Below, piece by piece: positions 3,889 through 60,037 of a DNA stretch of 64,000 nucleotides. The translations under genes and the position numbers were made by a program. The DNA comes from an uncultured Actinomycetes bacterium (GTDB lineage: Bacteria > Actinomycetota > Thermoleophilia > Gaiellales > Gaiellaceae), in NCBI GenBank assembly GCA_963748205.1, contig CAVVIB010000014.1, forward strand, positions 24,262-88,261, in the 5' to 3' direction. How positions within the stretch are numbered: the first letter of the stretch is position 1; each line of letters starts with the position of its first letter. The notes under the pieces are model-generated. The model saw only the letters and a program-made list of their open reading frames with translations, was not told the DNA's origin and ran no database searches.

Positions 3889-3895
3889 CTCGCGC

Positions 3896-15210: not shown

Positions 15211-15260
15211 CTCGGCGCCCCGCCGTCCGGTGGGCATCGAACCGAGTGGAGGTCACCCTC

Positions 15261-18488: not shown

Positions 18489-18496
18489 CGGACTTC

Positions 18497-18527: not shown

Positions 18528-18621
18528 ACCTACTTCCTGCGCTAGATACGCCGCGTACTAGACCTTTGACCGGACCGGCGATCCGCGGGTTGCCCCGTGT
18601 CGTACCCAGGGATACTGTCCG

Positions 18622-22005: not shown

Positions 22006-23448
22006 CTAGCTGCCGGGGGCTTCGCCGCCGGTGACCTTCTCCCACCAGTCGTCCTCGCGGCGCTTCAGCTCCGTCTGGACCTGGGCGACGTACTCGGCCA
22101 GCTCGTTCTCCTTCTGGCCCAGCCGCTCCTGGAGGTCGGCCAGCTCGCGCTCGCGGCGCTCGAGCTTGTCCTCGCGGATCTCGAGGTCGGCCTCGACGCG
22201 CGCTTCCTTGGCGTCGAGCTCGTTCTCTCGGCCGTCGAGGTCGAGGAGGCGGTCACGGAGGGACGACTCCGTCTCGGTCAGGCGCTTCTCGCGCCGGTCG
22301 AGCCGCTTGCGCTGGGACTCGACGACGTCCTCGGTGTTCGAGAGCTCGGCCTCGCGCTCGGCGAGCTCGCGCTCCCGCTCCTTCAGGCGCTCCTGGAGGG
22401 CTTCGAGGTCGAGGACCTTCGACGTCTCCGACTCGACGCGGGCGAGGTGCGCCTCTCGGTGGTGGAGCTCGGCCTCGCGCGCGGCCATCTCGGCCTCGCG
22501 CCGCTCGAGCTCGGCGAGCACCTCGGCGGACACCTGGCTATCGCGGTCGCGCCCGGACATGTCGCGCTCGAGACGCTCGGCGTCGAGGCGGAGCCGGTCG
22601 TGCTTGGCCCGCATGTCGGCCTCGCGCTCCTCGAGCGCCTCCTCCTTGGCCTGTATGCGCGAGTACTCCTTCGCCAGCTCGCGCTCCCGCGCGGCTGTCG
22701 TGCCATCGCGCTTGGAGAAGCTCTTCTCCTGTTCGCGCAGCGCGTTCTCGCGCTCGGCCAGCGAGCGGTCGCGTGCCTCCTGTCGGGCCTTCATCTCGGC
22801 CTCGCGGCTCGCGACGGTCTGCTCGCGCCGGACGAGCTTCGTTTCCTTCTGGTTCAGCGACTGCGCCTGCTTCGCCAGCTCGGACGTGAGCTTCTCGCGC
22901 TCGCGATCGGCGTCCTTCAGCTCCCTGAGCTTCGACTCGACCTGCTCGGCGCGCTCGCTTGTAAGCGCATCGGAGGCGGTGAGACGGTTCTCCAGCTCGG
23001 AGAGGCGCTCCCGCTCCTCACGGAAGTTCTGCAGCTGCTCGTTGAGGCGCGCCTCGCGAAGCTCGATCTCCTGCTCGGAGGACGCGAGCCTTGCGGCGCG
23101 GACGTCGAGCTCGGCCGAGCGGGCCGCATAGTCCTTGTCCACGGCCGCATGCTCGGCACCGGACGAGAAGGAGATGGCGAGCTCTGCACGCAGGTCGCGC
23201 TCCCGGTCGAGCGAGGCGGCGAGCTCCGCGCGGAGCGCGTCAGCCTCGTCGGACGAGACCGCCGCCCCGTTCGCCTGGGGCTCGGCGAGGTCCTCGGCAG
23301 CCGCCTCGACTTCCTTGGGCGCGGCGGCCCCGTTCTTCGCCGGTGCCGGCTCGCGCCGCTTCTCGAGCTTTCCGCGAAGGCCGGTGCCGAAGCCGGTCTC
23401 GGCCTCGTTCTGGGGGGACTCCTGCTGCGTCTCCTCGCTCACTGCCAT
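22006..23448 (-). CDS. long Glu/Arg/Leu-rich coiled-coil protein, last gene of the Tad operon
   Basis: 480 aa. After a roughly 70 aa disordered N-terminus it shows almost continuous heptad-like E/R/L/A sequence. It starts 21 nt after the tadC stop on the same strand. Confidence 0.6.
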   Translation of the reverse strand: MAVSEETQQESPQNEAETGFGTGLRGKLEKRREPAPAKNGAAAPKEVEAAAEDLAEPQANGAAVSSDEADALRAELAASLDRERDLRAELAISFSSGAEHAAVDKDYAARSAELDVRAARLASSEQEIELREARLNEQLQNFREERERLSELENRLTASDALTSERAEQVESKLRELKDADREREKLTSELAKQAQSLNQKETKLVRREQTVASREAEMKARQEARDRSLAERENALREQEKSFSKRDGTTAARERELAKEYSRIQAKEEALEEREADMRAKHDRLRLDAERLERDMSGRDRDSQVSAEVLAELERREAEMAAREAELHHREAHLARVESETSKVLDLEALQERLKERERELAEREAELSNTEDVVESQRKRLDRREKRLTETESSLRDRLLDLDGRENELDAKEARVEADLEIREDKLERRERELADLQERLGQKENELAEYVAQVQTELKRREDDWWEKVTGGEAPGS

Positions 23449-23469
23449 CCGCTGGTCGCCTGCCCGCGG

Positions 23470-24384
23470 CTAGAACAGCTCCGAGAGGTTGAGGAACGCC
23501 GGCCCGAGGATGACGATGAACATCGCCGGGAAGATGAAGAGCACGGTCGGGAACAGCATCTTGATCGGCGCCTTCATCGCCCGCTCCTCCGCGGCCAGCT
23601 GACGCCGGGTGCGGGTGTCGGAGGCCTGGACCTTGAGGATCCGGCCGAGCGAGATGCCGATCTGGTCCGCCTGGATGATCGAGCGCACGAAGGCCGAGAA
23701 CTCGGGCGTGTTCACGCGCTTCATCATCTTCGTGAGCGCGTTCGTCCGGCTCTCGCCGATGCGCATCTCGCCGAGCGCGAGCGCGAACTCGTCGGCGAGC
23801 GGGCCTTCCATGTGCTCGGTCAGCTTCGAGATGGCGCCGTCGAAGCCCATCCCGGCCTCGACCGAGACGGCCAGGAGGTCGAGCGCGTCAGGAAGCTCCG
23901 ACCGGAGGATCTCTCTGCGCGTCCGCATCCGGAACGTGAGGACGGTGTCGGGGAGCATGAAGCCGACGACGGCCATGGCGAGCCCGAGGAGCACGCCGCG
24001 CGAGGCCTGGCCCGTGGCCTGGGCCACGACCTGCCCGGCCACGAAGCCGATGAAGCCCACGATCGCCTTGGAGGCGAGGTAGGTCGTCGGCGAGACCCGG
24101 CGGTTCAGGCCCGCGTTGAGGAGCTTCGTCGAGACGGTCTCGATGCTCGCCCGCGGGGTGATGCGGAGGACGGCGCGGGCGAGGCCCGTCTTCATGGGCG
24201 TGAGCGCCCGGTCCTTGAAGGTGCCGTCGTCGAGCATGCTGCCGATCGGGACCCGATTCTTGCCGTAGGTCGCGGCACGGCGGATGGAGCCCACACGCTC
24301 GCGCGCGGGCTGGGTCATGAGGTCCATGAGGAGGTAGACGGCGAGGCCTACCGATGCGCCTGCGAGAAGAAGTAGCAAAGTCAT
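23470..24384 (-). CDS. tadC: Flp pilus assembly platform protein TadC (T2SS F family)
   Basis: 304 aa. T2SSF domain (LPDALDLLAVSVEAGMGFDGAISKL...) and C-terminal TM helices. Confidence 0.85.
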   Translation of the reverse strand: MTLLLLLAGASVGLAVYLLMDLMTQPARERVGSIRRAATYGKNRVPIGSMLDDGTFKDRALTPMKTGLARAVLRITPRASIETVSTKLLNAGLNRRVSPTTYLASKAIVGFIGFVAGQVVAQATGQASRGVLLGLAMAVVGFMLPDTVLTFRMRTRREILRSELPDALDLLAVSVEAGMGFDGAISKLTEHMEGPLADEFALALGEMRIGESRTNALTKMMKRVNTPEFSAFVRSIIQADQIGISLGRILKVQASDTRTRRQLAAEERAMKAPIKMLFPTVLFIFPAMFIVILGPAFLNLSELF

Positions 24385-24385
24385 G

Positions 24386-26248
24386 TCAGTACCTGAAGTT
24401 GACGATTTTGCGGAGCATGAGCGCGCCTACACCGATCATTCCGAGGCCGACCAGGACGAGCGTCCGGCCAGTGCTCGTGTGCCAGAGGGGGCGCATGTAC
24501 TCCGGGTTGACGACGGTGAGCATCCCGCCCACGAACACCGGGAGCGCGATGAGGACGTAGGCGGACGCCCGCCCCATCGCCGTGAGGCCCTTGATCTTCT
24601 TGGCGAACTGCTGCCGGTTGCGGACGGTGTCGGCCACCATGTCGAAGAGCCCGGCGAGGCTGCCTCCGACCTGGCGCTGGATCGTCACCGCGGTGATGAC
24701 GAACTCGAAGTTCTTCGAGCCGACCCGATGGGCCATCTCGGCGAGCGCCTCGTCCATCGGCCGGCCGAGCCGGGTCTCGGTGAGGACGCGGTTGAGCTCC
24801 TTCGAAGCCGGCGGCTGGTCCTCGTCGACGACGCTCTGGAGCGACTGGCGGAAGCTGTGCCCCGCCTTGAGGCCCGCGGCCATCGTCACGAGCAGGTCCG
24901 GCAGCTGATTCTCGAACGCCCTGACGCGCTTCTTCGCCTTGAAGGAGACGACGAAATAGGGGAGCAGGGTGCCGCCGATGAGGCCGACGGCGATCCACGG
25001 AACGGACCGCGTGAAGCCCGCCGCGACGAGCCCGGACACGAAGCCCGCGGCGAGCATGACGTAGACGAGCTCGACGGTGCGAAGCGGGACGTCGGCCCGC
25101 TCGATCGTCCGCTGGAGGCGCAGCCACGGCTTGAAGTTCCCGAGGGCGTTCTCCGTCGCGCGGAAGAGGCCCGCGGCGATCTTCAGCCGCTCGCGCCCGG
25201 TCCGCTTCGCGGCCCGGCGGCGCGTGTCGAGATGCGGCTCCAGCCGCCCCTTGAGCCAGGCGCCCCGCGGTGACGCGAACGCAAAGGCGCACGCGACGAG
25301 CACGAGGATGCCGACCAGCGCGGCGAAGGACGCCTGGCCCCAGAACGTGCCGAAGAACTGCTCGGGCAGACGTCCTTCCACGGCGGGCTTGCGAGTCGCG
25401 ACTCCCTCGCCCGGCACGGTGAGCTTGACGGTCGCCGTCTCGCCGGCCGCCTTGGCGGCGACCTCGACGTTCTCGCTCGGGAGCGCCGTGGTCACGTACT
25501 CGAGTCGCCACGTGCGCGAGAGCTCCTCCGCGATGGAGGTGTAGACCTCGGCGAGCGCCTCGGTCGAGGCCGTGCCGTAGTACTTCCCGCCGGTCGAGTC
25601 GGCGAGCTCCTGCAGCGGTACCGGGTTGAAGAGCGTGCTCTCGATCCCGACGACGTAGATGGACACGCCGGCGTCCTGCGCGGCGGTGATCGTCTGCTTG
25701 AGCGTCGCCTCGCTCCGGGTTTCGTTCCCGTCGGTGACGACGATGATGACGCGCCCGAGGTTCGACTCGGACGAGAGCGAGCTCGCCGAGAGGACGAGCG
25801 CGTCGTAGAGGGTCGTCCCCTGCACCGAATCGACCGAAATGGAACGGAGGGCCGAGTCGGCATCGATCGTCGAGGTCTGGAAGCCGGTGAGCATGACCGG
25901 CTCGGTCGCGAACGTCGCGACTGCGATCCTGTCCTCCTCCGGCTTCGCCGCGACGAAGGCGCGCGCCGCTGCGACGGCGTCCTCGAGCGGCTTCCCGTCC
26001 ATCGACTGCGAACGGTCGACGGCCAGGACGATGCTCTTCCCCCGGCCGAGGTTGGTGGCCGTGAGGCCCGTGACCTCCTCGCCGTTCTCGGTCAGCGTCG
26101 GCGCCGTGATCGACGGCTCGTCCGTGACGAAGATCGCCCGGACGACCGGGTAGTCGCTCGTGTCCGCCTCGATCGTCGCCGCGACGGCGGCGGACGGGAG
26201 GACGAGGAGTGCGAGGGCCGCCGCGAGGCCGAAGACCCGCGGGCGCAT
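24386..26248 (-). CDS. tadB: von Willebrand A domain fused to Flp pilus platform protein TadB
   Basis: 620 aa. Signal peptide, then a vWA domain with MIDAS DRSQSM...TDG, a TM helix, then a T2SSF domain (LPDLLVTMAAGLKAGHSFRQSL...). Confidence 0.85.
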   Translation of the reverse strand: MRPRVFGLAAALALLVLPSAAVAATIEADTSDYPVVRAIFVTDEPSITAPTLTENGEEVTGLTATNLGRGKSIVLAVDRSQSMDGKPLEDAVAAARAFVAAKPEEDRIAVATFATEPVMLTGFQTSTIDADSALRSISVDSVQGTTLYDALVLSASSLSSESNLGRVIIVVTDGNETRSEATLKQTITAAQDAGVSIYVVGIESTLFNPVPLQELADSTGGKYYGTASTEALAEVYTSIAEELSRTWRLEYVTTALPSENVEVAAKAAGETATVKLTVPGEGVATRKPAVEGRLPEQFFGTFWGQASFAALVGILVLVACAFAFASPRGAWLKGRLEPHLDTRRRAAKRTGRERLKIAAGLFRATENALGNFKPWLRLQRTIERADVPLRTVELVYVMLAAGFVSGLVAAGFTRSVPWIAVGLIGGTLLPYFVVSFKAKKRVRAFENQLPDLLVTMAAGLKAGHSFRQSLQSVVDEDQPPASKELNRVLTETRLGRPMDEALAEMAHRVGSKNFEFVITAVTIQRQVGGSLAGLFDMVADTVRNRQQFAKKIKGLTAMGRASAYVLIALPVFVGGMLTVVNPEYMRPLWHTSTGRTLVLVGLGMIGVGALMLRKIVNFRY

Positions 26249-27684
26249 CAGTGGAACCCGCCGGTGCTCGCCGCCTGGAAGCTGACCCGCACGTTCTCGT
26301 CCGAGTCCTGCTGGAAGAAGTTCGGGGGCAGGACGACGCCGTTGGCGGCCATCTTCTCCAGGAAGTGCGGCTTCAGCCCCGTGCAGCGAAGCGGCGTGAG
26401 GAGCCGCGTCGCTCCCGGGGCAGTGGCGTCCTCGTCCGGCGGCTTCGCCATGAAGACGTCCTGAAGCGTGATCACGTCGGACTCCATCCGCATGACCTCG
26501 GTGATGTGCGAGAGGCGGCGGGAGCCGTCCACGAGGCGCGTAATCTGGACGAGCAGGTCGAACGCGCTCGAGATCTGCTCGCGGATCGCGCGGTGCGGGA
26601 GCTCGACGCCGGCGGTGAGCACGAGCGTCTCGAGACGCGCGAGCGCGTCCCGTGGGGAGTTGGCGTGGATCGTGGTCAGCGAGCCCTCGTGGCCCGTGTT
26701 CATGGCCTGGAGCATGTCCAGTGTCTCCGCGCCGCGGACCTCGCCGACGATGATGCGGTCGGGGCGCATGCGCAGTGCGTTCCGGACGAGCTCGCGGATC
26801 CGCACCTCGCCCTGGCCCTCGATGTTCGCCGGGCGGGACTCGAGCGGGATCACGTGGGCCTGCTGGAGCTGAAGCTCGGCCGCGTCCTCGATGGTGACGA
26901 TGCGCTCGTCGCCGGGAACGAAGGCCGAGAGGGCGTTGAGGGTCGTCGTCTTACCGGTACCGGTACCGCCCGAGATGAGGACGTTGAGCTTCCCCTGGAC
27001 GCAGGCGGCGAGGAAGTGCGCGGCCTTCGCGGAGACCGACCCGAAGTTGATCAGGTCGTCCATCGTGTAGGGGTCGCGCGAGAACTTCCGGATCGTCATC
27101 ACCGGGCCGCGCAACGAGAGCGGCGGGATGATGGCGTTGACGCGGCTGCCGTCCGGCAGGCGCGCGTCCACCATCGGCGACGACTCGTCGACGCGCCGGC
27201 CGACCTGGGAGACGATCTTGTCGATGATGCGGAGCAGGTGCGCGTCGTCCACGAAGGTCGACGTCGTGATCTCGAGCTTGCCTGCACGCTCGACGTAGAT
27301 CCGGTCGGGCCCGTTGATCATGACCTCGGTCACGGTGTCGTCGCGGAGCAGCGGCTCCAGCGGCCCGTAGCCGAGGATGTCGTCCGTGATCTCGCGCACG
27401 ATCTGGCGCCGCTCGTCGCGCGTGAGCGGTGTCTGGTCGAGCGCGAGCTGCTCGGTGACCGCGCGGAGCACGCGCTCCGTGAGGTCCTCGTTCGTCCGGG
27501 CGCTGAAGAGCTCCGGGCCCAGCTTCGCGATGCACGCGTGGTGGACGCGGGTCTTCAGCTCGGCGTAGGGATCGGCAACTCGCTGATCGGGCTGAGCTTC
27601 GCGCGCTGCGTTCTCGACCCGAGCGACCACCGCCTCCTGTCCGCCGCCGCCGTTCGAGCTTCTGAGGCGATCGTGGAGACCCAT
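26248..27684 (-). CDS. tadA: Tad/Flp pilus secretion ATPase TadA/CpaF
   Basis: 478 aa with Walker [17 protein letters not shown], a Walker B/Asp box, His box, and CpaF family sequence. Confidence 0.95.
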
Positions 27685-27686
27685 GG

Positions 27687-28874
27687 TTAGCCCTTCCTGA
27701 AGAGACCGCGCTTCTGACCCTTGGCGATCTCGGCCGGCTGGAGGCCCTTGGCCATCTCGCGAATCGCCTTGGAGAAGTCCGCGCCGGGCTCGGCGAGCAC
27801 GGCGGGGTTCCCGCGGTTGACCGAGATCGGGACGGCCCGGTCGCTCGGGACCTCGAAGCGGACCTTCGTCTCGAGGGCGCCCTCGACCTCGTTCCGCTTC
27901 ATGCCCACCTTGGAGTTCGCCCGGTTGAGGACGAGGCGGATGCGGTTCTGCGGGAAGGCGAGGAGCTCCAGCGTCTGGAGCGCGAGCCTGACGTTCTTGA
28001 GGGTCGGGACATCGAGCCCGCAGACGAGCAGCAGCTCGTCGGTGCGGTCGAGCGTCGCCAGCATCGGCCCGTGGAAGAAGGGCGACGTGTCGACGACGAT
28101 GATGTCGTAGGACTCGCGCGCCACTTCGAGGAGCCGGGACAGCTTGCTCTCGGTCACGAGCTCCGCGTCCTCGGGGCGCACCGGCGCCGGGAGGATGTCG
28201 AGGCCCGAGGTGTGCTTCGTCGTGTAGCCGGCGAGCTTCTCCGAATCGAGCTCGCCCGGCGCGACGACCAGGTCGTAGATGGTCTTCTCCGGCTCGAGGC
28301 CGAGCATGATCGCCGCGTCCCCGAACTGGAGATCCAGGTCGAGGAGCAGCGTGCGCTTGCCCTCGAACTTCGCGAAGGCGGCGGCGAGGTTCGTCGAGGT
28401 GACGGTCTTGCCGGTGCCGCCCTTGGGCGAGAAGACGGTCACGATCCGGCCGCGGCGGGTCGGAGCGCTGACCGGGGTCTTCGCGCCGTTCTTGCTCGCC
28501 TTGCGGATGGCGAAGACGATGTTCTCCGTCATCTGCGGGAGGAGCAGGACGTCCGAGACGTCGGCCTCCAGCGCCTCCTCGAGGAGGACCGAGGCCTCTC
28601 CCGAGGCGAGCAGGATGATGGGCGCCCGCGTGTGCTCGCGAAGCGAGGCGATCTCGTCGCGGGGCAGAGTCGAGCTGCGCGTTCCGTGCAGGACGGCCTC
28701 GAGATGGCCGCCGGTCAGCGTGCCGGCCGACTCCGCGACGCCGACGCTCGTCCCGACGAGCTCGACCTCGGCGTGGCGCTCGAGCGCGTCGCGGAGCTGG
28801 TCGAGGCCGTCGCAGGACCCCGTCATGAAGATGCGGGCCTTCTCGCGGGTGGGTGCGGAGGTGTCGACGCTCAT
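27687..28874 (-). CDS. cpaE: CpaE/TadZ-like pilus assembly ATPase (pseudo-receiver plus ParA/MinD domain)
   Basis: Start ATG 28874 is preceded by GGAGGG and has an ATGA overlap with the cpaB stop. P-loop FSPKGGTGKTVTSTNLAAA. Confidence 0.85.
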   Translation of the reverse strand: MSVDTSAPTREKARIFMTGSCDGLDQLRDALERHAEVELVGTSVGVAESAGTLTGGHLEAVLHGTRSSTLPRDEIASLREHTRAPIILLASGEASVLLEEALEADVSDVLLLPQMTENIVFAIRKASKNGAKTPVSAPTRRGRIVTVFSPKGGTGKTVTSTNLAAAFAKFEGKRTLLLDLDLQFGDAAIMLGLEPEKTIYDLVVAPGELDSEKLAGYTTKHTSGLDILPAPVRPEDAELVTESKLSRLLEVARESYDIIVVDTSPFFHGPMLATLDRTDELLLVCGLDVPTLKNVRLALQTLELLAFPQNRIRLVLNRANSKVGMKRNEVEGALETKVRFEVPSDRAVPISVNRGNPAVLAEPGADFSKAIREMAKGLQPAEIAKGQKRGLFRKG

Positions 28875-29653
28875 TGAGTCCCTCCGTTCGCGCCGGCCAT
28901 GATCTCCTCGATCTGCTGGAGCTTCAGACCGTCCTCGAAGAGGGTCTTGTAGTTCTCGGCGCTCTCCGGGCTGTCCGCGTCGTCCTTCGGGGGACGGAGG
29001 ACGAGCGTCCACACACCGTTGGAGTGGATCCAGAGGAGCTTCTGCTCCTGCGCGTCCGTGAGCGCGAGCTTGACGGAGAGGTTCTGGCCCGTCCCGCCCT
29101 CGGAGATCTTGCTCGTGACGTCGCTCTGCTTGACGCCCTCGATGACGAGGATGTCGCGCAGGATGACGCGGCTGACGTGGTGCGTGGCTCCCTCGGGGAC
29201 GTTCCAGGTGCCGACGACGTCGACCTTGTCACCCTCCTGGAGGACGCCCGCGAGGAGCTGATGCTGGTTGCCGGGCAGCTGGACGGCGCGGAGATTGCCC
29301 GTCAGCTGCGCCCGGATGCCCTTCTCGGCCTCGGAGCGGAAGCGGAGCTGGCTGACCTGCTCGCCCTTGTAGATCTCGCTCGAGACGAGCTTCTCGCTCA
29401 CGTCGGCAGGCTCGAGCAGCGCGCCGGGTGCGACCTGCGAGCGCTCGATGTCCGACTGGACGATGAAGCCGCCGGCCTCGAGGTCGGCGCCGGAGGTTCC
29501 GGCGGGAATGTCCTTCGCCGCAACCCAGACCGGGACGAGCTCCTGATCCTCCTGGAGGCGGCCGCGCTCTTGAGAAACGTAATAGAAAACGAGGAGCACC
29601 GCGACGGCGGCGAGCGCGATCGCGAGCCCGAGGTTGCGGAGTCGATACGTCAT
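28871..29653 (-). CDS. cpaB: Flp pilus assembly protein CpaB/RcpC
   Basis: Start at ATG 29653 (MTYRLRNLGLAIALAAVAVLLVFYY, TM). SAF-like domain VPVWVAAKDIPAGT and an RcpC beta domain. Confidence 0.85.
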   Translation of the reverse strand: MTYRLRNLGLAIALAAVAVLLVFYYVSQERGRLQEDQELVPVWVAAKDIPAGTSGADLEAGGFIVQSDIERSQVAPGALLEPADVSEKLVSSEIYKGEQVSQLRFRSEAEKGIRAQLTGNLRAVQLPGNQHQLLAGVLQEGDKVDVVGTWNVPEGATHHVSRVILRDILVIEGVKQSDVTSKISEGGTGQNLSVKLALTDAQEQKLLWIHSNGVWTLVLRPPKDDADSPESAENYKTLFEDGLKLQQIEEIMAGANGGTQ

Positions 29654-29755
29654 TGCACCACGTCTTTCTGATCTCGAATTACGTGCCTTATCGGCGGGTC
29701 TCGGCCATGAGATGAGCGCCGTTTCTTGCTGCCGCACCGAGCGCGCGGCAATGGG

Positions 29756-41226: not shown

Positions 41227-42858
41227 TTGCATTCGTTTCAACCCCCTGGCGACGAGCCTGGCACACAGCGGCCGGCGAGCGGAGAGCCTGTGAGCACTCC
41301 ACTTCGCGAACGCCCTGATGCGCCCCTCGGGACCCTCATCTTCCGCGCCGGCCTCCTGCCCGCGGAGACGATCGAGAACGCCCTCGAGGAAGGCGTCAAG
41401 ACCGGCAAGCGCCTCGGCGAGATCCTCACCGAGCGCGGCCTCATCACCGAGGTCGACCTCGCGCGCCTGCTGGCCGGCCAGAAGGGCCTCGACTTCGTGA
41501 TCCTGCGCGAGCAGATCGTCGACTCGGCCGCGGCCGCCCTCTTCACCGAGGAGCAGGCGAAGCTCTTCCGCGCCCTCCCCTACGGCCTCGAGGACGGCAT
41601 GCCCGTCGTGGCTATCGCCGACCCGACCGATGAAGTGCTCCTCCGGAACATCCGCGAGGGCCTCGGGCGGGAGGACATCAAGTTCGTCGTCTCGACGCGA
41701 GGCGAGCTGGTCGAGATCACCAACGACGTGTACTCGAAGCCTCTCCAGGTCGCGACGCCGGCGCCCGAGCCCGAGCCCCGCAATCGAGCCCGAGGCGGCA
41801 GTCGAGCCCGAGCCGGTTGTCGAGCCCGAGCCCCTTGTCGAGCCCGAGCCGATTGTCGAAGTCGCCCCCGACCCCGAGCCCGTCGCCGAGGTTGCACCCG
41901 AGCCGGTCGCCGAGGCCGCCCCCGAGCCCGCCGCCGAGCCCGAGATCGAGGCCGGCTGGCCCCAAGTTTCGCCCGACCCCACCCCCGAGCCCGAGCCCGC
42001 TCCGGTCGCGCACGAGCCCGACCCCATCCCCGAGCCCGAGATCGAGATCGCTCCCGTCGCGCACGAGCCCGAGCCTGCGCCCGAGCCCGCATTCGAGCCC
42101 GCGCCGGAGGCGCCCGCCGTCCCGCACACGAACGGGGTCGTGCCGCCCGAGGCGGCCCCGCTCCTCCAGGTTCCCGCGCCCGAGCCCGTCGCTCCGGCAA
42201 TGCCCGAGCCCGTGCCGGCCGAGCCGGTCGAGCCCGTGCTCCAGGTCCCGGCACCCGAGCCGCTTCTCCAGGCCGAGCCGCCCGCGCCCGAGCCGATCGC
42301 TCCGGTCGAGCCGACGCCGCCCCACAGCCTCTCCAGGTCTCCGAGCCGGTCGCCGAGCCCGCGCCCGAGCCTGAGCCTGAGCCCGCGCCGGTTCTCGAGC
42401 CGGCCGCCACGGTCGAGCCCCTCCAGGCCCCCGAGGTCGTTCCCGCGCCGGAGCCGGTCCAGGCTCCCGAGCCGGTTGCATCGCCCGAGCCCCTCCCGCA
42501 GCCCGAGCCCGCTCCGCTGCCCGCGCCCTACCCGCCCGCGGCAGCCCAGCCGGAGCCCGAGCCGCAGCCCGACCCCGCTCCTGTCGCGCCCGAGCCCGCC
42601 GTGCCCGAAGCCCCTGTGGCCGAGGCCGGCGCCACCACGCTCTTCCGGGTGCTGATCAGGCTCACGAACGGTGACCGCGTCGACGCCGGCGACTTCTCCG
42701 AACTGGAGGGCGCCAAGCAGCACGCGAAGTCGCTCATGAGCCAGGTCGCGGACGCCGAAAGCGGCGACTGGCCGTACGTCAGCGGCCGCTTCCTCAAGCC
42801 CGACACCATCGTCTCGGTCGACATCGCCGAGCACGACGGCGACGGCCCTCCCGCCTAG
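41227..42858 (+). pseudogene. stand-alone MshEN (T2SSE_N, c-di-GMP-binding type) domain protein with a long Pro/Glu/Ala linker; two compensating frame changes in the linker
   Basis: N-terminal PLGTLIFRAGLLPAETIENALEEG-VKTGK-RLGEILTERGLITEVDLARLLAGQ. The PEP-rich text reads properly only in ORF 41630..42655 between about 41778 and about 42321. A conserved-looking C-terminal domain ([35 protein letters not shown]...) is back in the first frame. An alternative start is GTG 41290. Confidence 0.7.
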
Positions 42859-43523
42859 CTTCCGGTCTCCTCCGGCAGGAGCGGCGAGCGGATCTCTGCC
42901 GCGATACCGCGCCGTTTCGCGAGCGCCTGGAGCACGATGACCGTGTCGGCCACCGGAATGCCCTCGAGGTACTCGTCCCGGCTCTCGAAAGACGCGAGCA
43001 CGCGCGCCACGGCCTCCTGGTACGCGGCACCGTCACCGGCTGCGAGCGCGGCCAACGACTCAGCAACGGGGCGCGGGAAGGCGTCCTCCGCCGCATCCAC
43101 GAGCGGCGCCGCGGCGGCCGCGGCCTCCTCGTCGCGGCCGAGGACGAGGAACGAAAGCACCGCGGCGTAGCACCCGATCGGCGACTGCCCGTCGGCCGAG
43201 CCCTGCTCGAGGGCCCACGCGGCGTCGGCCTCGGCCCCTTCGCGGTCGCCCGCGAGCATCCGCGCCTTGACGGCGCCGATCAGACGCCCCCAGCTTCCCG
43301 GAGGGGCATCGGCGTAGCTCTCGCGGAAGCGCTCGGCCGACCGCGCGAACCAGCCCGCCGCCTCGGCGCGCCGTCTCTGCATCAACCGTACGAGCCCTGC
43401 CCCGGTCGCCGCCATCGCCATGCGCACGAGCTGCTTCTGGCGGGCGTCGGCCTCGTCCGGAAGACGATCGAGGCCGTCGGCGTAGCGGCCCTCCTCGCGC
43501 TCGGCGTGCGCCTCCCAGTCCAT
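42855..43523 (-). CDS. helical-repeat hypothetical protein
   Basis: 222 aa, Ala/Glu/Arg-rich and predicted all-alpha. No family recognised. It is preceded about 75-90 nt upstream by a copy of the recurrent TGACT..TGTCGT element. Confidence 0.5.
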   Translation of the reverse strand: MDWEAHAEREEGRYADGLDRLPDEADARQKQLVRMAMAATGAGLVRLMQRRRAEAAGWFARSAERFRESYADAPPGSWGRLIGAVKARMLAGDREGAEADAAWALEQGSADGQSPIGCYAAVLSFLVLGRDEEAAAAAAPLVDAAEDAFPRPVAESLAALAAGDGAAYQEAVARVLASFESRDEYLEGIPVADTVIVLQALAKRRGIAAEIRSPLLPEETGS

Positions 43524-43593: not shown

Positions 43594-43611
43594 ACAAACG
43601 ACAATAGTCAG
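43594..43611 (-). promoter_or_regulatory. copy of the recurrent AT-rich element (CTGACTATTGTCGTTTGT)
   Basis: 12/14 identical to the copy at 44010..44023. Lies upstream of 42855..43523(-). Confidence 0.35.
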
Positions 43612-43796
43612 TGCCGTTGATGCTCCGGGGGTCCGCAACCGCAGGCGGGCCCCCGACTCTTCTCCGGCGGCCCGACACCTGCGATGCGAGCTATCGATCC
43701 TCCCCACCTCGAGCTTCCTGCCTACGCGCCGGCAGACGACTCTCCCCGGCTCTGCCGGCCGCCCGCAAGAGCCTTCGAGGCCGCATCGCTAAAGGA

Positions 43797-43834
43797 AACG
43801 GGGTGGCGAGGTGAAAATTGCCCGCCACCCCGTT
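43797..43834 (-). terminator. rho-independent terminator after the 25-codon ORF
   Basis: Perfect 12 bp stem AACGGGGTGGCG / CGCCACCCCGTT with a 14 nt loop. On the minus strand it is followed by TCCTTTAG. It begins 15 nt after the ORF stop. Confidence 0.6.
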
Positions 43835-43848
43835 ACGATCTTCCTACG

Positions 43849-43926
43849 CTAGTGCCACGGAGTTCCGCCCACCAAGGCGGCGAACGACCCGAGCGCAGCG
43901 CAAAGCAACGCCACCCGAATCTTCAT
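43849..43926 (-). CDS. 25-codon hydrophobic micro-ORF (candidate exported signalling pro-peptide), divergent from the XRE-TPR regulator
   Basis: Not in the track. AAGGA lies 7 nt before ATG 43926. MKIRVALLCAALGSFAALVGGTPWH*. GC3 is 20/25 versus 15/26 for the antisense frame. It has a dedicated terminator. Coordinates were checked against track ORF 43684..43986. Confidence 0.45.
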   Translation of the reverse strand: MKIRVALLCAALGSFAALVGGTPWH

Positions 43927-44004
43927 GGAGCCATCCTTTCGTCGTACCGACAACTGGACAGCCCCGGGCCCGAGGGCAATGCGTGACAGTACATTAGGCG
44001 TCAG

Positions 44005-45309
44005 ATGCCACGACAAAAGTCAACTCACGTCGACGATCCACAGGCGGTAGGAAACCGCCTTCGCACCGCGCGGGAAGCCGCCGGGCTGAGCCAGCGACAG
44101 CTGGCTTTTCAGGGCTGCTCGCCGGCGTACATCTCGCGGATCGAGTCGGGTGACCGGATCCCGTCGCTTCAGCTCCTCCGCGAGCTCGGGCGGCGGCTCG
44201 GCGTCTCCGAGGACTACCTCGCCACCGGGTCCGACCCCGAGGCGCGCAACGGCAAAGCCCTAGAGGCCGAGGTCGCGCTCCGCCTGGACGACCTCGAGCT
44301 GGCCCACGACCTCTACACGCAGCTGCTCGACCAGGCCACGGGTGACGGCGACCGCTCGAACGCCCACGCCGGTCTCGGCCAGGTCGCCTACCGGCGCGGG
44401 GACCCGCGCACCGCGATCGACCACTTCGAGACCGCGATCCAGCTCTCGGGCGCGGACGAGACGGCCAACCCGGACGTGGCCGACTCGCTCGGGCGCGCGT
44501 ACGCGATGGTGGGCGAGCCCGAGTCGGCCATTGCCGTCTTCGAGCGGTGCCTCGCGGCCGCGGACGGCCGTGACGACCAGCTCGAGCGCATCCGCTTCCA
44601 GCTCCTCCTGGGCGACGCCCTCATCGACAGCGGGAACTTCGGCCGCGCGGAGGAGCTCCTCGCCAACGCGCTCGCGCTCGGGAAGGACTCCATCAACCCG
44701 AACGTGCGGATCAACCTCTACTGGACACAGTCCCGCCTGCACGCCGAGCGGAACGACAGCGAGACGGCCGCGCGCTACGCGCGCCGCGCGCTCGAGGTCC
44801 TGCGCATGACCGAGGACACGTACCGCACGGCCAGGGCGCACCAGCTCCTCGCCCACATCGAGCTCGACCGGGGCCGGCCCGACGAGGCGCTCGCGCTGCT
44901 CGAGGAAGGCTGGCCGCTCCTCCAGACGAGCGGCAACGCCGTCGAGCGAGCCCAGTACCGTCTCGAGGAGGCGCGCGCGCTCACGCGGCTCGAGCGCAAG
45001 GAGGAGGCAGCCGCGCTCGCCATGCAGATCGCCGGGATCGTCTCGGACGCAGCGCCCGAGGACGCCGCGCGGAGCTACTCGACCCTCGCGGAGATCTACG
45101 AGGAGATGGGCGACCGCGGGCGGGCGCTCGAGCTCTACGAGCTCGCGGCCGAGCTTCTGCGCCCGACGAACCCCAACCGCTACCTCGCCCGCGTATACGC
45201 CCAGATGGGCGAGCTGTACGAGGCCGAGGGCAACGCCGAGATGGCGTACGAGTACATGAAGAAGGCCGTCGGCATGCAGCAGGCGGTCGCTTTGAAACAC
45301 CAGACGTAG
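44005..45309 (+). CDS. HTH(XRE)-TPR transcriptional regulator (RRNPP/Rgg-like architecture)
   Basis: 434 aa. HTH VGNRLRTAREAAGLSQRQLAFQGCSPAYISRIESGDRIPS, then about 8 TPR-like repeats (e.g. ARSYSTLAEIYEEMGDRGRALELYELAAELL). Confidence 0.85.
   Translation: MPRQKSTHVDDPQAVGNRLRTAREAAGLSQRQLAFQGCSPAYISRIESGDRIPSLQLLRELGRRLGVSEDYLATGSDPEARNGKALEAEVALRLDDLELAHDLYTQLLDQATGDGDRSNAHAGLGQVAYRRGDPRTAIDHFETAIQLSGADETANPDVADSLGRAYAMVGEPESAIAVFERCLAAADGRDDQLERIRFQLLLGDALIDSGNFGRAEELLANALALGKDSINPNVRINLYWTQSRLHAERNDSETAARYARRALEVLRMTEDTYRTARAHQLLAHIELDRGRPDEALALLEEGWPLLQTSGNAVERAQYRLEEARALTRLERKEEAAALAMQIAGIVSDAAPEDAARSYSTLAEIYEEMGDRGRALELYELAAELLRPTNPNRYLARVYAQMGELYEAEGNAEMAYEYMKKAVGMQQAVALKHQT
44010..44023 (-). 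promoter_or_regulatory. copy of the recurrent AT-rich element (TTGACTTTTGTCGT)
   Basis: On the minus strand, oriented towards the micro-ORF 43849..43926. 12/14 identical to 57634..57647. Confidence 0.35.
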
Positions 45310-56136: not shown

Positions 56137-56223
56137 CTAGCGGCCGCCGAAATGGCCGAAACCGGCCAGCGGTGCGAGGAACGCGACCAGCGTGGTCAGC
56201 GTCAGGAGAGCCTTCACCTTCAC
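56137..56223 (-). CDS. 28-codon hydrophobic micro-ORF (candidate exported signalling pro-peptide) coupled to the upstream XRE-TPR regulator
   Basis: Not in the track. GAAGGAGG lies 8 nt before GTG 56223, and the ORF starts 19 nt after the regulator stop. VKVKALLTLTTLVAFLAPLAGFGHFGGR*. GC3 is 24/28. Coordinates were checked against track ORF 56134..56364. Confidence 0.5.
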   Translation of the reverse strand: MKVKALLTLTTLVAFLAPLAGFGHFGGR

Positions 56224-56242: not shown

Positions 56243-57583
56243 CTAGAAGTGGAAGTCCTGGAGCGTTTCCGCGGCTCGGCGGTACAGTCGCGCCGCCTGC
56301 CGGTCGTCGCCCTGCCGTCCGGCGAGGTCGCCCTGACCCATCCAGGCGCGGGCTCGCTGGCTGACGGCGGACTGCTTGTCGAAGCTCGACTCGGCGGCCG
56401 CGAAGTACTCCGCGGCCTCGTCGTAGCGTTCCTGCTCGAGAAGCGAGTTCCCGAGCACGAGCTGCGCGTTGCCGATCTCGTCGAGGTGGTCCTCCCGGTC
56501 GCCGAGCATCGCGAGGGCCTCGCGGGCCTGCGACTCGGCGAGCTCGACCTGGCCGGTGGCGAGGTGCACCCCGGCGAGGGAGTTGATGACCCGGGCGGCG
56601 TTCGTGTCGTCGCCGAGGTCGAGGAGGACCTTGAAAGACTGCTTCAGGTAGCCGATCGCCTCGTCGGAGCGTCCGAGCTGGTGGTTGAGCGCCCCGATCT
56701 CGTTCAGGAGCTTCCCGACGTTGGCCTCGTCGCGGACCTCCTCGTAGATCCCCTTCGCCTTCTCGGCGTAGGAGCGGGCCTGGACCCAGTTGCCCGTGCG
56801 CTCGGCGATGAGCGAGTACTGGAAATAGACGTGCGCCATCGTGTGGCGGTCGTTGAGCCCTTCCGCGAGCTCGAGCGCGCGCTCGACGTCCTCCTTCGCG
56901 GCCTGGAAGTCGCGCGCCTGGCGATAGCAGCGCGAGCGCCACTCGAGGATGTGCGAGCGGAGGCGGTCGGCGGGGACGGGCGAGCGCTGGACGAGCTCGA
57001 GCGCCTGCGTGTACAGGGCCTGGGCCGTCGCGTACGAGTTCAGCTTCACCCGGCAGCAGCCGAGGTGGTAGAGCACCTGCGCCCGGTCGATGTCGGTGAA
57101 CGACGGGCTCTCGGCGATCGCGCGGGCGCGGTCGAGGATGGCAACCGACTTGCGGACCTCGCCCAGGTACATGCGCGACCACGCCTCGGCGAGGTACGCG
57201 CGCAGGGCGAGCTCCGGCGCCGCCAGTGTGTCCAGGACGGACGCGAGCGGAAGAAGCTCGGCGACGGCATCCTCGTACTCGCTGGCCTCGATCGCGGCCT
57301 CGGCGCGGACGATCACGCTCTCGACGCGCTCGCGCTCGCTCGAGGAGACGCCGGTCTCGAGGAAGCTCGAGTCGACGCCCAGGCGAGCGGCAAGCCATTC
57401 GATCGTCTCGGCCGTCGGGCGCGTCTTGCCACGCTCGATCTGGCTGACGTATTCCTTGGAGAAGCGCTCGCCGGCCAGGTCGGTCTGCGTCAGTCCCCGG
57501 GCGATCCGGAGCTGCCTGACGCGACCTCCGAGAGTGGGGCGCGACGGTGTTTGGGTGCGGGCGAGGGCGGCGGTCTCGTTCAT
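56243..57583 (-). CDS. HTH(XRE)-TPR transcriptional regulator (RRNPP/Rgg-like architecture), paralogue of 44005..45309
   Basis: About 446 aa (ATG 57583; the track start TTG 57589 is 2 codons upstream). HTH LGGRVRQLRIARGLTQTDLAGERFSKEYVSQIERGKTRPT, then about 8 TPR-like repeats. Confidence 0.85.
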   Translation of the reverse strand: MNETAALARTQTPSRPTLGGRVRQLRIARGLTQTDLAGERFSKEYVSQIERGKTRPTAETIEWLAARLGVDSSFLETGVSSSERERVESVIVRAEAAIEASEYEDAVAELLPLASVLDTLAAPELALRAYLAEAWSRMYLGEVRKSVAILDRARAIAESPSFTDIDRAQVLYHLGCCRVKLNSYATAQALYTQALELVQRSPVPADRLRSHILEWRSRCYRQARDFQAAKEDVERALELAEGLNDRHTMAHVYFQYSLIAERTGNWVQARSYAEKAKGIYEEVRDEANVGKLLNEIGALNHQLGRSDEAIGYLKQSFKVLLDLGDDTNAARVINSLAGVHLATGQVELAESQAREALAMLGDREDHLDEIGNAQLVLGNSLLEQERYDEAAEYFAAAESSFDKQSAVSQRARAWMGQGDLAGRQGDDRQAARLYRRAAETLQDFHF

Positions 57584-57599
57584 GGTCAACCTACGGTGA

Positions 57600-57935: not shown

Positions 57936-59369
57936 TCAGGCGGCGACCTCGGCGAGCTCTGCCGCGTCCATGTGCCGGTGCTTGCGGATCGTGGTGACGG
58001 CGACCACTGCACCGATCAGCGCGAACACCGCGCTCACCCTGAGCGCGACCTGGAAGCCGTCGATGAAGGACGAGGGATCCGGCCGGCCGCCGCTCAGGTC
58101 GACGTACGAGGCCACGATCGCCCCCATGACGGCGATCCCGAGTGCCCCGCCGACCTGGCGGAACGTGTTCAGGACGCCGGAGCCGACCCCCGACTTCTCC
58201 ACGGGGACGGAGCCGAGCGCGGCCGCCGTCATCGGCGTCATGACGAGACCCATTCCGAAGCCGCCCACGACCAGGCCCGGAAAGATGTCCCAGAAGCCCG
58301 AGTCGAGGCCGAGGCGCGAGAAGATCGCGAGGGAGGCGGCTAGGCAGAGCATCCCGGAGGTCATCAGTGCCCGCGAGCCGATGCGGTCGGACGACTTCCC
58401 GGCGATCGGCGCGATCAGGATGATCAGGATCGTCATCGGGAGGAACGCGGCGCCGGTCTTGGTTGCCGAATAGCCGAGGATGTTCTGCATGTAGATCGAC
58501 ATGAAGAAGAACACGCCGAACATGGCGAGCGTCACGAGCAGCGCGACGACGTTCGCTCCGGCGAACGTGGAGCTCTTGAAGAGCGAGAGGTCGAGCATCG
58601 GCGAGCGCTGGTGCCGCTCGAGGAGCACGAAGCCGGCGAGCGAGACAACGGAGAGCACGAAGAGCCCGATGATGAGCGGGTCGGTCCACCCGTAGGCGTT
58701 CGCCTCGATCAGCGCGAACGTGAGCGCGAAGAGCCCGACGCCCGAGGCGATCAGCCCGGGAATGTCCAGGCGCTGATCGTGCGAGGTGTCCCGCGACTCG
58801 CGGATCACGAGTCGGCCGACGATCAGGCCGAGGACGCCGATGGGGACGTTGATGAAGAAGATCCAGCTCCAGTTGATGTGCTCTGTCACGAGCCCGCCGA
58901 TCAACGGGCCGATCGCGAGCGCCATCGCGGAGACGCCTGCCCAGATCCCGATCGCCATGCCGCGCTGGTGCGGAGGGAAGGTCGCCGAGATGATCGAGAG
59001 CGTGGCGGGCATCATCAGCGCGGCACCAACGCCCTGAACCGTCCGCGCGCCGATCAGCGTCTCGCCGGACGTCGCCAGCCCGCAGGCGAGCGAGGAGAGC
59101 GTGAAGATCGCGAGGCCGACCAGGAAGACGCGGCGTCGCCCGAAGAAGTCGGCCATCTTGCCGCCGGAGAGCATGAGCACGGCGAAGGTCAGGGCATACG
59201 CGTTCACCGTCCACTCGAGCTCCGAGAGGCCGATCCCGAGGTCGCTCTGGATCGACGGGAGCGCGACGTTCACGACGGTGTTGTCGAGCATGATCATGAA
59301 GAGCGCGAAGGCAACGGCGCCAAGCGTCCACCACTTCCGGCTCTCCTCGGCGAAGATTCGTGCCTTCAC
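57936..59369 (-). CDS. MFS drug:H+ antiporter, DHA2 (EmrB/QacA, 14-TMS) family
   Basis: Start GTG 59369 (GTGA overlap with the TetR stop). WWTLGAVAFALFMIMLDNTVVNVALPSIQSDLG... 14 hydrophobic segments. Confidence 0.85.
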   Translation of the reverse strand: MKARIFAEESRKWWTLGAVAFALFMIMLDNTVVNVALPSIQSDLGIGLSELEWTVNAYALTFAVLMLSGGKMADFFGRRRVFLVGLAIFTLSSLACGLATSGETLIGARTVQGVGAALMMPATLSIISATFPPHQRGMAIGIWAGVSAMALAIGPLIGGLVTEHINWSWIFFINVPIGVLGLIVGRLVIRESRDTSHDQRLDIPGLIASGVGLFALTFALIEANAYGWTDPLIIGLFVLSVVSLAGFVLLERHQRSPMLDLSLFKSSTFAGANVVALLVTLAMFGVFFFMSIYMQNILGYSATKTGAAFLPMTILIILIAPIAGKSSDRIGSRALMTSGMLCLAASLAIFSRLGLDSGFWDIFPGLVVGGFGMGLVMTPMTAAALGSVPVEKSGVGSGVLNTFRQVGGALGIAVMGAIVASYVDLSGGRPDPSSFIDGFQVALRVSAVFALIGAVVAVTTIRKHRHMDAAELAEVAA

Positions 59370-60037
59370 GAGGGTTCCTCCTTGCTGTGCGGGAGCAAAT
59401 GACCGCGCGCCTCTGCGGGCGCGAGGCCGAAGACGATGGTGTGGACGAGCTCGCGCGCGAACAGCGCCGGGTCCGTCGGCTCCTTGCCGGCCAACGCGTG
59501 CGTCAGGACCTGGTCGCGGCACGCGCCGATGAGGATCGACGCGACGACGTCGGGGTGCGCGCGCTCGTCGAGGCGCCCGAGCTTCTGCTCGGCGCCGATG
59601 TATGAAGCCGCGGTCCTGAAGATCGCGACGGGGCCGGTCTCGCGCTCGCGCAGCCGCTCCTTGAAGCGCGCGAAGACGCTCCGGTCGCCCATGAGCGCGT
59701 AGAAGATCGGCTGGTTGTCGTGGAGAAGCTTGAGGAGCTCCTCGACCCAGGGGACGAGGTTGGCCTCGACCGTCTCCTCGCCGGCCCGCGAGGGCAGCTC
59801 CATCAGCTCGGCGAAGTAGGGCTCGCGCTCGACGATGACCGCGATGACGAGGTCGATCTTGTCCTCGAAGTGAACGTAGATCGAGCCCTCCGCACAGCCG
59901 GCGGCACGGGCGATCTCGCGGGTGGTCGCGCCCGCGAGGCCGTGCTCCCGGATGAGCGTGTCCGCCGCCTCGATGATCCGGCGGCGCAACGTTGGCTTGG
60001 TTTCGACCGTCTCCACCATGAGTGAGTGCTCGCTCAT
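59366..60037 (-). CDS. TetR-family transcriptional regulator
   Basis: RRRIIEAADTLIREHGLAGATTREIARAAGCAEGSIYVHFEDK is the TetR_N HTH. Start is ATG 60037 or ATG 60019. Confidence 0.85.
   Translation of the reverse strand: MSEHSLMVETVETKPTLRRRIIEAADTLIREHGLAGATTREIARAAGCAEGSIYVHFEDKIDLVIAVIVEREPYFAELMELPSRAGEETVEANLVPWVEELLKLLHDNQPIFYALMGDRSVFARFKERLRERETGPVAIFRTAASYIGAEQKLGRLDERAHPDVVASILIGACRDQVLTHALAGKEPTDPALFARELVHTIVFGLAPAEARGHLLPHSKEEPS

Follow-up and report, generated by a model that had tools for sequence, protein, structure and literature searches.

The locus described here raises the question of whether a very short open reading frame beside a regulatory gene of an uncultured actinobacterium is a gene and, if so, whether its product may be the signal which the regulator senses. 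It lies in a 64,000-nt stretch of DNA (the window; GC content 71%) from an uncultured Gaiellaceae bacterium (Actinomycetota). A first-pass annotation had pointed to a 25-codon open reading frame (micro-ORF) with AAGGA 7 nt before its ATG, to a divergent gene 78 nt away which encodes a regulator of the XRE-type with tetratricopeptide repeats (TPRs), and to a second, paralogous pair of regulator and micro-ORF. We reproduced the position and the translation of the micro-ORF (MKIRVALLCAALGSFAALVGGTPWH); the AAGGA proved to be part of an AAAGGA, 78 nt indeed separate the two divergent start codons, and the regulator gave Pfam matches to both a helix-turn-helix (HTH) domain, HTH_3, and TPRs. The second pair is also present. 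The divergent pair is designated here cassette 2 and the other one cassette 1 (Table 1). The cassette-2 micro-ORF reads ATG AAG ATT CGG ... TGG CAC TAG, and its product consists of a basic N-terminus (MKIR), a hydrophobic segment and the C-terminal tail GGTPWH. We consider it on balance probable that this micro-ORF and the adjacent protein with an HTH and nine TPRs form a peptide-receptor signalling cassette which is similar to the RRNPP systems and occurs outside the Bacillota.

A scan of one genome per species yielded 48 orthologous loci (regulator identity 45–97%) in metagenome-assembled genomes (MAGs) of Gaiellaceae, Gaiellales, Thermoleophilia or unclassified Actinomycetota, which together with the window makes 49 loci. 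The micro-ORF is intact in 33 of them: 31 copies are divergent and lie 63–98 nt from the regulator start, one (L048) is inverted and one (L040) is of a repeat type. Two further copies are broken, by a frameshift in L013 and by an in-frame stop codon in L026, where assembly errors are possible, and in 14 loci the regulator is intact and the micro-ORF absent. Nearly every intact orthologue is preceded by an AAAGGA-type Shine-Dalgarno (SD) sequence 7–9 nt before the start (AAAGGG in L016, GGAGGAG in L031), and the intact divergent copies start with ATG throughout, except for the GTG of L028. The peptides are 25–31 aa long and the length differences between intact copies comprise whole codons. Among the 17 distinct 25-codon sequences, 15, 14 and 23 of the 25 sites vary at codon positions 1, 2 and 3, respectively, and the summed pairwise ratio of non-synonymous to synonymous differences (pN/pS) is 0.37 in the proposed frame vs 0.94 and 1.80 in the shifted frames. 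We searched the 458 kb of fetched DNA (both strands, six frames) with a generic scanner for frames with an SD sequence, K or R at the N-terminus, an uncharged hydrophobic core and a Trp towards the C-terminal end, and obtained 30 hits. All 30 were located 74–98 nt upstream of, and divergent from, an orthologue of the regulator, and none at any other place. Many spurious ORFs arise in GC-rich genomes, and the micro-ORF might accordingly be a chance open frame whose conservation stems from a non-coding element. However, both the wobble pattern and the pN/pS values are specific to one frame, the SD sequence and the start codon are conserved, insertions and deletions in the intact copies occur in multiples of three only, and the scanner found nothing away from the regulator. 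A chance ORF was ruled out on these grounds, its probability being practically nil. The comparisons indicate that the micro-ORF is a translated gene under purifying selection which is specifically tied to the regulator, in agreement with the first-pass view that it is a real, conserved gene.

Two other interpretations of the frame were discarded. With antisense coding by the plus-strand ORFs 43684..43986 and 43818..43997, codon position 1 or 2 would be the one which varies most. As for a lipoprotein signal, Cys9 is kept in the 25-aa clade only, there is no lipobox (A-L-L-C) and the residue is too near the N-terminus. The peptide gave no match in Pfam and NCBIfam at E ≤ 10, and neither did the hairpin or the 270-nt spacer region in Rfam at E ≤ 1. 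Gene callers commonly use a size cut-off of about 30 codons; standard programs miss this gene family, whose ORFs fall below that cut-off. In one Joint Genome Institute metagenome the cassette-1 micro-ORF is called as a 30-aa gene (L059:2851–2943) without a Pfam match, and the other records mostly leave the micro-ORF genes of the cassettes uncalled.

The 26 distinct cassette-2 peptides start with the pattern M-(K/R)-x-(R/K). The next 14–22 residues are uncharged and hydrophobic; their sequence differs between the clades and the hydrophobicity alone is kept. The conserved C-terminal motif is G-G-x-P-W-x: the Trp (position 0) is found in all 26 peptides, Gly at position −3 in 23, Gly at position −4 in 17 and Pro at position −1 in 16. 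The Trp is followed, according to the clade, by H, S, W, R, GP, PP or P, which is suggestive of a pherotype-like variation. The resemblance of the ...VGG segment to the end of the streptococcal SHP pheromones, which had been noticed at first, is only superficial, as the conserved element runs past VGG and L040 repeats GLPWGH four times. In L040, the micro-ORF position (L040:3750–3920, minus relative to the regulator) is occupied by a 54-aa ORF with its own AAGGAG, MSNTASSPSAVTVETTAARAGLPWGHRAQRGLPWGHQRRGLPWGHQRHGLPWGH, which has four copies of GLPWGH and the basic spacers HRAQR, HQRR and HQRH, and no hydrophobic segment. The repeat-type precursor was also found at L055:1843–2007, L056:1080–1244 and L057:1850–2014; P0121, an independent relative represented by three Logan contigs, has it in the same gene context. 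Eight codons differ between P0121 and L040: the six non-synonymous changes are without exception located outside the GLPWGH units, and the two synonymous ones fall within them (Fisher p = 0.036). The units are thus invariant between the two lineages, and the N-terminus and one spacer differ. Tandemly duplicated Phr pheromones likewise conserve their mature units and vary in between (PMC11343458). This pattern identifies the tail G-x-P-W-x(-x) of approximately six residues as the functional, constrained part of the peptide.

A conserved core rich in Trp, Gly, Pro and His and the multi-core precursor of L040 would also suit a bioactive peptide, either a ribosomally synthesized and post-translationally modified peptide (RiPP) or an unmodified one, e.g. 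an antimicrobial or a morphogen, which is controlled by the TPR regulator and modified by enzymes encoded elsewhere. Multi-core precursors are common among RiPPs. The TPR part of the cassette-1 regulator, moreover, weakly matches HaaT, a TPR protein of cyclophane RiPPs, although far below the cut-off and as a case of generic TPR similarity. RiPP precursors are clustered with their modifying enzymes, whereas the conserved neighbourhood here contains no gene for a radical-SAM enzyme, P450, cyclase, protease or ABC transporter, and the neighbouring gene for a 222-aa protein is kept where the micro-ORF is absent. We therefore regard such a precursor as improbable.

The pairing of a micro-ORF with a regulator of this type recurs in cassette 1. 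Six cassette-1 loci were obtained by a metagenome scan and six more were looked up by protein identity; the micro-ORF is intact in 11 of these 12 (regulator identity 67–91%). The homologues of the regulator start two residues later, the length range being 446–448 aa. The sequence AGGAGGTG follows right after the stop codon of the regulator gene, and the two genes are co-directional as in NprR-NprX and not divergent. Its peptides end with the motif GFGHF(G/D)G(R/H) or GHWVGFFDGH, and the products include VKVKALLTLTALVAFLAPLAGFGHFGGR, ...GFGHFDGH, ...GGGHFDGHRRW and VTARQVQLLVLLVTLAAFLGKGHWVGFFDGH. A common plan had been suggested for the peptides of the two pairs and we found it in both families: basic residues, a hydrophobic segment, -AAF/AFL- and a tail of Gly, aromatic residues and His (...LVAAFGGFGLVWPP vs ...LVAFLAPLAGFGHFGGR). 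The argument that two such pairs in a single window are hardly a coincidence thus holds and is now backed by comparative data. Micro-ORF and regulator are genetically coupled in two paralogous systems and in three gene arrangements.

A conserved gene for an MFS transporter (57936–59522, minus strand; positions 1–1230 in L058–L063) directly precedes the cassette-1 regulator gene, and in L059, L062 and L063 a TetR gene lies between the two. That this transporter exports the cassette-1 peptide is pure speculation.

The elements which flank the cassette-2 micro-ORF suggest that it is a transcription unit of its own. Downstream, a perfect 12-bp inverted repeat (43797–43808/43823–43834), which extends to 14 bp in the fold of the minus-strand RNA, starts 14–15 nt past the stop codon. 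The predicted fold of the 81-nt segment has a stability of −36.5 kcal/mol (z = −3.4), and none of 200 shuffled sequences was as stable. The stem, of the GGTGGCGGG/CCCGCCACC type, is kept in the relatives, where the T:A to C:G replacements seen in L012, L022/L032 and L029 are compensatory. The terminator proposed in the first-pass annotation therefore stands with regard to its 12-bp stem and its position, but the T-rich stretch behind it is only modest. A GC-rich stem-loop and a U-tract after the ORF are what is expected of an intrinsic terminator, and the structure may well be one, with a tract which is weak in the window and strong in L048. A simple terminator scan did not call the hairpin because of its loop limit of 8 nt and its requirement of 5 T in 8. 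Upstream of the micro-ORF, the block of GGACAGC and CCCCGGGCCCGAGGG accompanies the ORF in its intact and its broken form (L013, L026 and L040 included); a remnant was detected in L009 and the block is gone from the other ORF-less loci. The GACAATAGTC/TGACAATTGTCA palindrome, whose GACAATAGTC in the window spans 43600..43609, is by comparison kept with or without the micro-ORF (e.g. in L004, L009, L010, L026, L035 and L048) and could be the operator of a constitutive target.

L048 has the complete module in the opposite orientation. It is located at 3838–3930 on the plus strand, co-directional with the regulator gene (start 4001; 45% identity) and 70 nt upstream of it, and consists, in this order, of the palindrome CCCCGGCCGGGG, GCTGTTCCAG, AAAGGA, the ORF VKARLLLIGVVLGALVLALVVADGGGWPGP with its stop codon, a strong hairpin and the long T-tract TTTTACTTTT. 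Since the inverted copy keeps the palindrome and the hairpin stem is conserved, the micro-ORF can be considered an autonomous module with its own promoter/operator and terminator, and one which, judging from these loci, stays beside the regulator whichever way it faces. This arrangement also bears on another explanation, namely that the micro-ORF encodes a cis-acting leader peptide which together with an attenuator hairpin controls the 222-aa gene, the Pro-Trp end being a ribosome-arrest motif. A short ORF, a hairpin and a same-strand gene about 270 nt further on are present in the window, and the C-terminal P-W-x-stop is loosely similar to arrest peptides. However, the inverted module of L048 is upstream of the regulator and ends with a strong terminator, the cassette-1 ORF is the last gene of an operon, no alternative anti-terminator pairing or Rfam match was seen, the 222-aa gene is kept in loci without the ORF, and the repeat variant of L040 would be senseless as a leader. 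The leader hypothesis is largely refuted by L048 and cassette 1, and we give it hardly any credence.

Table 1 Features of the two cassettes in the window
Feature	Coordinates	Strand	Remarks
222-aa all-alpha protein	42855..43523	−	Neighbour and candidate regulated target; syntenic in nearly all loci, including ORF-less ones
Palindrome GACAATAGTC (TGACAATTGTCA in relatives)	43597..43613		Candidate operator; ~75–90 nt upstream of 222-aa gene
U-rich tail UCCUUUAGCG	43787..43796	−	After hairpin; modest/weak tract for a genome with 71% GC
Terminator-like hairpin	43797..43834	−	12–14-bp stem, 10-nt loop; after micro-ORF
Cassette-2 micro-ORF	43849..43926	−	25 codons + stop; MKIRVALLCAALGSFAALVGGTPWH; proposed pre-peptide
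SD sequence AAAGGA of cassette-2 micro-ORF	43934..43939	−	7 nt before ATG
Near-palindrome GGACAGC + CCCCGGGCCCGAGGG	43956..43976		Candidate operator/promoter; ~43 nt upstream of micro-ORF ATG
−10-like TACATT	43990..43995	+	9 nt before regulator ATG; TAYA/TATA box conserved
Cassette-2 regulator	44005..45309	+	434 aa; XRE-type HTH + nine TPR pairs; proposed cytosolic peptide receptor/transcription factor
Cassette-1 micro-ORF	56137..56223	−	28 codons, GTG start; VKVKALLTLTTLVAFLAPLAGFGHFGGR; directly downstream of regulator, same strand
Cassette-1 regulator	56243..57589	−	448 aa; HTH + TPR; ~26% identical to cassette-2 regulator

Judging from the −10-like element close to the ATG of the cassette-2 regulator, the mRNA of this gene probably has no leader or hardly any. 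In distant orthologues, an insertion of approximately 20 nt with AAGGA is found in place of the TACATT region. A simple sigma-70 promoter scan of the intergenic region found nothing. The motif CCCCG(T/A)TACGATC lies beside the hairpin in the window (43834–43842, plus strand TACGATCTT) and, in ORF-less loci, 40–60 nt upstream of the regulator start; it was found upstream of the regulator in L004, L010, L011, L020, L024 and L047. Its TACGAT could be the −10 box of the regulator gene in the ORF-less loci, and the micro-ORF module then looks like an indel of approximately 150 nt between the TACGATC motif and the regulator.

The cassette-2 regulator matched HTH_3 (E 2e-14), TPR_12 (E 8e-30), TPR_2 and other families in Pfam. 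In its AlphaFold2 model (predicted local distance difference test score, pLDDT, 87.5), an HTH domain at residues ~12–74 is followed by 18 helices which make up nine canonical TPR pairs. In a Foldseek search of the PDB, LGN/Pins, consensus-TPR proteins and OGT ranked first, with TM-scores on the target of up to 0.76, and a number of the LGN/Pins structures contain the peptide-like partners NuMA, Inscuteable and Frmpd4. Of the peptide receptors of the RRNPP type, PlcR was found at rank 37 (E 3.7e-7, 268 columns of the 280-residue chain, covering HTH and TPR), RapI at rank 40 (TM-score on the target 0.66) and the pLS20 Rap at rank 42. No match to the Rgg family was found for this regulator in NCBIfam or Pfam.

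The order of genes at the cassette-2 locus is conserved: MshEN-domain protein, 222-aa protein, micro-ORF (where present), regulator, helicase and DsbD-like protein. The 222-aa protein has a single, sub-threshold Pfam match (Imm49, E 5e-4), and no family, defence-system or solved-structure match was found for it in NCBIfam, PADLOC and PDB sequences. The locus was considered as a defence island and as a mobile element and neither idea was upheld, as the PADLOC matches are at the HTH level only, searches of plasmids and phages gave no homologue of the cassette-2 regulator, the synteny is core-chromosomal and the peptide phylogeny follows the regulator tree. The locus is part of the core chromosome and not an island. 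The micro-ORF is ancestral since it is found in all deep branches of the regulator tree. It was deleted at least nine times and disrupted twice independently, with the regulator left intact every time; the leftovers include the hairpin in L004 and the palindrome in L009. A short, hydrophobic peptide whose gene is often lost or pseudogenised is reminiscent of a hydrophobic type I toxin or another self-acting small protein unrelated to what the regulator senses. We consider this very improbable, since there is no conserved antisense RNA signature and no Rfam match, the locus is syntenic, core-chromosomal and vertically inherited along the regulator tree, and both the polar/aromatic tail and the leaderless repeat variant are unlike a pore-forming toxin.

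A peptide-receptor cassette could work as follows. A 25-aa pre-peptide would be produced from its own small transcription unit with a palindromic operator/promoter, an SD sequence, the ORF and a hairpin terminator. Its basic and hydrophobic N-terminal part would be a leader for export and processing, as in SHP or PrgQ, which might proceed through PptAB/Eep as for SHP (PMC13361665) or through a signal peptidase cleaving after the conserved Ala-Ala. A short C-terminal peptide with G-G-T-P-W-H would be released and accumulate. After re-import, or possibly already inside the cell, it would bind to the concave groove of the TPR superhelix and thereby alter how the HTH domain acts at two palindromes, the one in front of the peptide gene, which would amount to auto-induction, and the one in front of the 222-aa gene. 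Export, cleavage, uptake, binding and regulatory output are all inferred. The cassette is nevertheless our preferred reading because the linkage survives rearrangement (divergent in most loci, inverted in L048, downstream in cassette 1), because LGN/Pins, which rank first in structural similarity, are proteins whose TPR groove binds extended peptides, and because solo receptors persist after at least 11 losses or disruptions of the peptide gene.

Four of the five features of the operational signature of RRNPP systems (PMC10075063) were found here. The propeptide (10–100 aa in the signature) has 25 aa, its orthologues 25–31 aa and the repeat type 54 aa. The receptor (250–500 aa) has 434 aa in cassette 2 and 446–448 aa in cassette 1, and the TPRs with an optional N-terminal HTH are evident from Pfam and the AlphaFold2 model. 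Receptor and propeptide genes are adjacent in 33 of the 49 cassette-2 and 11 of the 12 cassette-1 loci. The fifth feature is a propeptide which is secreted (Sec/SPI, or PptAB for SHP/PrgQ) and matured to a short peptide; the basic N-terminus followed by an uncharged stretch of 14–22 residues would be compatible with an SHP-like leader, which the L040 variant does not have. Receptors of the RRNPP(A) superfamily occur in Bacillota or their mobile elements, whereas all 48 related loci are from Actinomycetota MAGs. The cassette does not belong to the Rgg/SHP subfamily, which has TIGR01716-type receptors and SHPs with a conserved D/E and a hydrophobic C-terminus, in having a 434-aa receptor with nine TPRs and a tail G-G-x-P-W-x without a conserved D/E.

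A number of observations weigh against a peptide-receptor cassette. All the evidence is computational and the comparative sequences are all from MAGs. In the Foldseek search, generic TPR proteins ranked above PlcR and Rap, and NprR was not among the top 50 PDB matches. In phmmer searches of PDB sequences, PlcR (E 1.8e-4) and ComR matched through the HTH only. The best curated family is a TPR family of the NsdA type (NCBIfam NF053720), with 63.7 bits at residues 248–422 against a cut-off of 75. The modelled architecture is that of RRNPPA clan B (NprR/QssR), which is defined by an HTH and nine non-degenerate TPRs (PMC12700828), while the searches neither establish nor rule out a common origin with RRNPPA. 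In 14 of the 49 loci the regulator is kept although no peptide gene adjoins it, and a search of ±4 kb around the ORF-less regulators gave no relocated micro-ORF. After the loss of the peptide gene, 7 of 11 independent lineages have a TPR domain which has diverged further than that of their sisters with the ORF (up to 0.18 substitutions per site more) and an HTH which is almost unchanged, but four lineages break this trend (sign test p = 0.27). The first-pass annotation had proposed to align the two regulators and to look for co-variation. The alignment gave the identity listed in Table 1, and the co-variation signal is weak: two non-sister clades which gained a terminal Trp independently share four unique receptor substitutions (133, 231, 237 and 310), other non-sister clade pairs 0–2. 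The rate and co-variation results thus point weakly to a coupling of receptor and peptide. The window contains no genes for Opp, an ABC exporter, a dedicated protease or other transport and processing functions. The L040-type precursor has no hydrophobic leader, which makes the classical export route doubtful for at least that variant and may leave room for intracellular sensing or for another export route; there are precedents in leaderless peptides and in ComS, which signals within the cell (PMC13361665). Finally, the hydrophobic stretch of 15–18 residues also fits a small membrane protein.

The last point leads to a further explanation, a small membrane or envelope micro-protein which would be a regulated target of the neighbouring regulator and not its ligand, the adjacency reflecting cis-regulation. 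Its uncharged hydrophobic run of 14–22 residues after K/R is in agreement with the positive-inside rule, the ORF has its own promoter/operator-like palindrome, and both the loci which keep the regulator alone and the lack of transport or processing genes nearby would be expected. Nevertheless, the hydrophobic segment is loosely conserved and the tail of 5–6 residues strongly, and in L040 and P0121 the hydrophobic segment is dropped and the tail multiplied fourfold. In addition, the pairing recurs in the paralogous cassette 1 with another gene order, in an operon with the regulator, and the sensor domain of the partner is of a peptide-binding type. We consider a membrane protein rather unlikely.

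Compared with known systems, the peptide-receptor cassette proposed here is similar to the Rgg/SHP and PrgX/PrgQ quorum-sensing pairs of streptococci and enterococci in its layout, i.e. an unannotated peptide gene of ~22–25 codons which is divergent from the gene of a cytosolic HTH-repeat regulator (groups I/II; PMC13361665, PMC10075063). The peptides also have basic residues, a hydrophobic stretch and an active part at the C-terminus, and the promoter of the peptide gene is beside the regulator. The likeness to rgg/shp pairs put forward in the first-pass annotation is therefore justified for the divergent layout and the SHP/PrgQ-like build of the precursor but not for the receptor. Rgg receptors are ~285 aa long, have five degenerate TPR-like repeats and are confined to Lactobacillales (PMC12700828), whereas the regulator described here has 434 aa and nine canonical TPRs and occurs in Actinomycetota. 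Similarly, SHP tails read D/E-I-I-I-I-V-G-G, in contrast to the polar/aromatic G-G-x-P-W-x ending with His, Ser, Trp or Gly-Pro.

The receptors of the NprR-NprX and QssR-QssP systems are closer in architecture (HTH and nine recognisable TPRs, ~420–450 aa), and in cassette 1 the peptide gene is immediately downstream and co-directional as in NprR-NprX. However, there is no significant sequence similarity to NprR beyond the HTH and generic TPRs, and the phylum is another one. NprX has ~43 aa and a Sec signal, whereas the cassette peptides have 25–31 aa. The precursors of L040 and P0121 resemble those of Rap-Phr systems in being multi-unit, with conserved units and variable N-terminal and between-unit regions as in Phr3T and Phr105 (PMC11343458). 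The Phr precursors, in contrast to L040, keep an N-terminal Sec signal, and Rap proteins have no HTH and act on protein targets. The NsdA family of Streptomyces (NF053720) is actinobacterial and the best-scoring curated TPR family, but the score is below the cut-off and the match covers a part of the protein only. To our knowledge, neither a peptide ligand nor an adjacent micro-ORF has been described for NsdA. LGN/Pins rank first among the structural matches, and their concave TPR channel takes up extended peptides; these proteins are eukaryotic scaffolds without an HTH, though, and the similarity probably reflects canonical TPR geometry, not common function.

Outside the cassettes, the window contains a Tad/Flp-pilus-like cluster (22006–29737, minus strand) with two T2SSF-domain proteins, one of them fused to VWA, a T2SSE ATPase and a CpaE/ParA-like AAA_31 protein. 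Two adjacent large proteins (593 and 884 aa; 16707–21276, plus strand) have RTX calcium-binding nonapeptide repeats, and an ORF of 1736 aa (10305–15515) lies just upstream of them. The MshEN-domain protein (41227–42858, plus strand) has a long low-complexity middle rich in Pro, Glu and Ala (PEPEPAPV-type repeats), a region which gives rise to long spurious ORFs in all other frames.

RRNPP/RRNPPA signalling is treated as a hallmark of Firmicutes, their phages and plasmids, and the paper on RRNPP_detector sets peptide signalling in Firmicutes against signalling by enzyme-made small molecules in Actinobacteria (PMC10075063). A full-text literature search gave no report of RRNPP-type systems in Actinobacteria/Actinomycetota or Gaiella. 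We tentatively propose, as a possibility which is still open to considerable doubt, that Gaiellales have a family of peptide pheromones and HTH/nine-TPR receptors with at least two paralogous cassettes per genome and tails rich in W/F, Gly and His, which would be the first communication system of the RRNPP type with genetically encoded, unmodified peptides outside Bacillota. Such a family would be either an ancient sister lineage, and hence an outgroup for RRNPPA, or an independent convergent invention. Were it to exist, the logic of RRNPP signalling would reach a second phylum, in a widespread and barely cultured order of soil actinobacteria, with a new peptide 'alphabet' of G-x-P-W-x and G-H-F-x-G-H tails. 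It would also provide a candidate for the outgroup requested to root RRNPPA and to settle whether the ancestor had five or nine TPRs (PMC12700828). The proposal is directly testable, as the candidate ligands are unmodified peptides of 6–9 residues with Trp as an intrinsic fluorophore and the candidate operators are defined palindromes. If validated, it would extend both the logic and the architecture of RRNPP systems to another phylum and add a new family of peptides.

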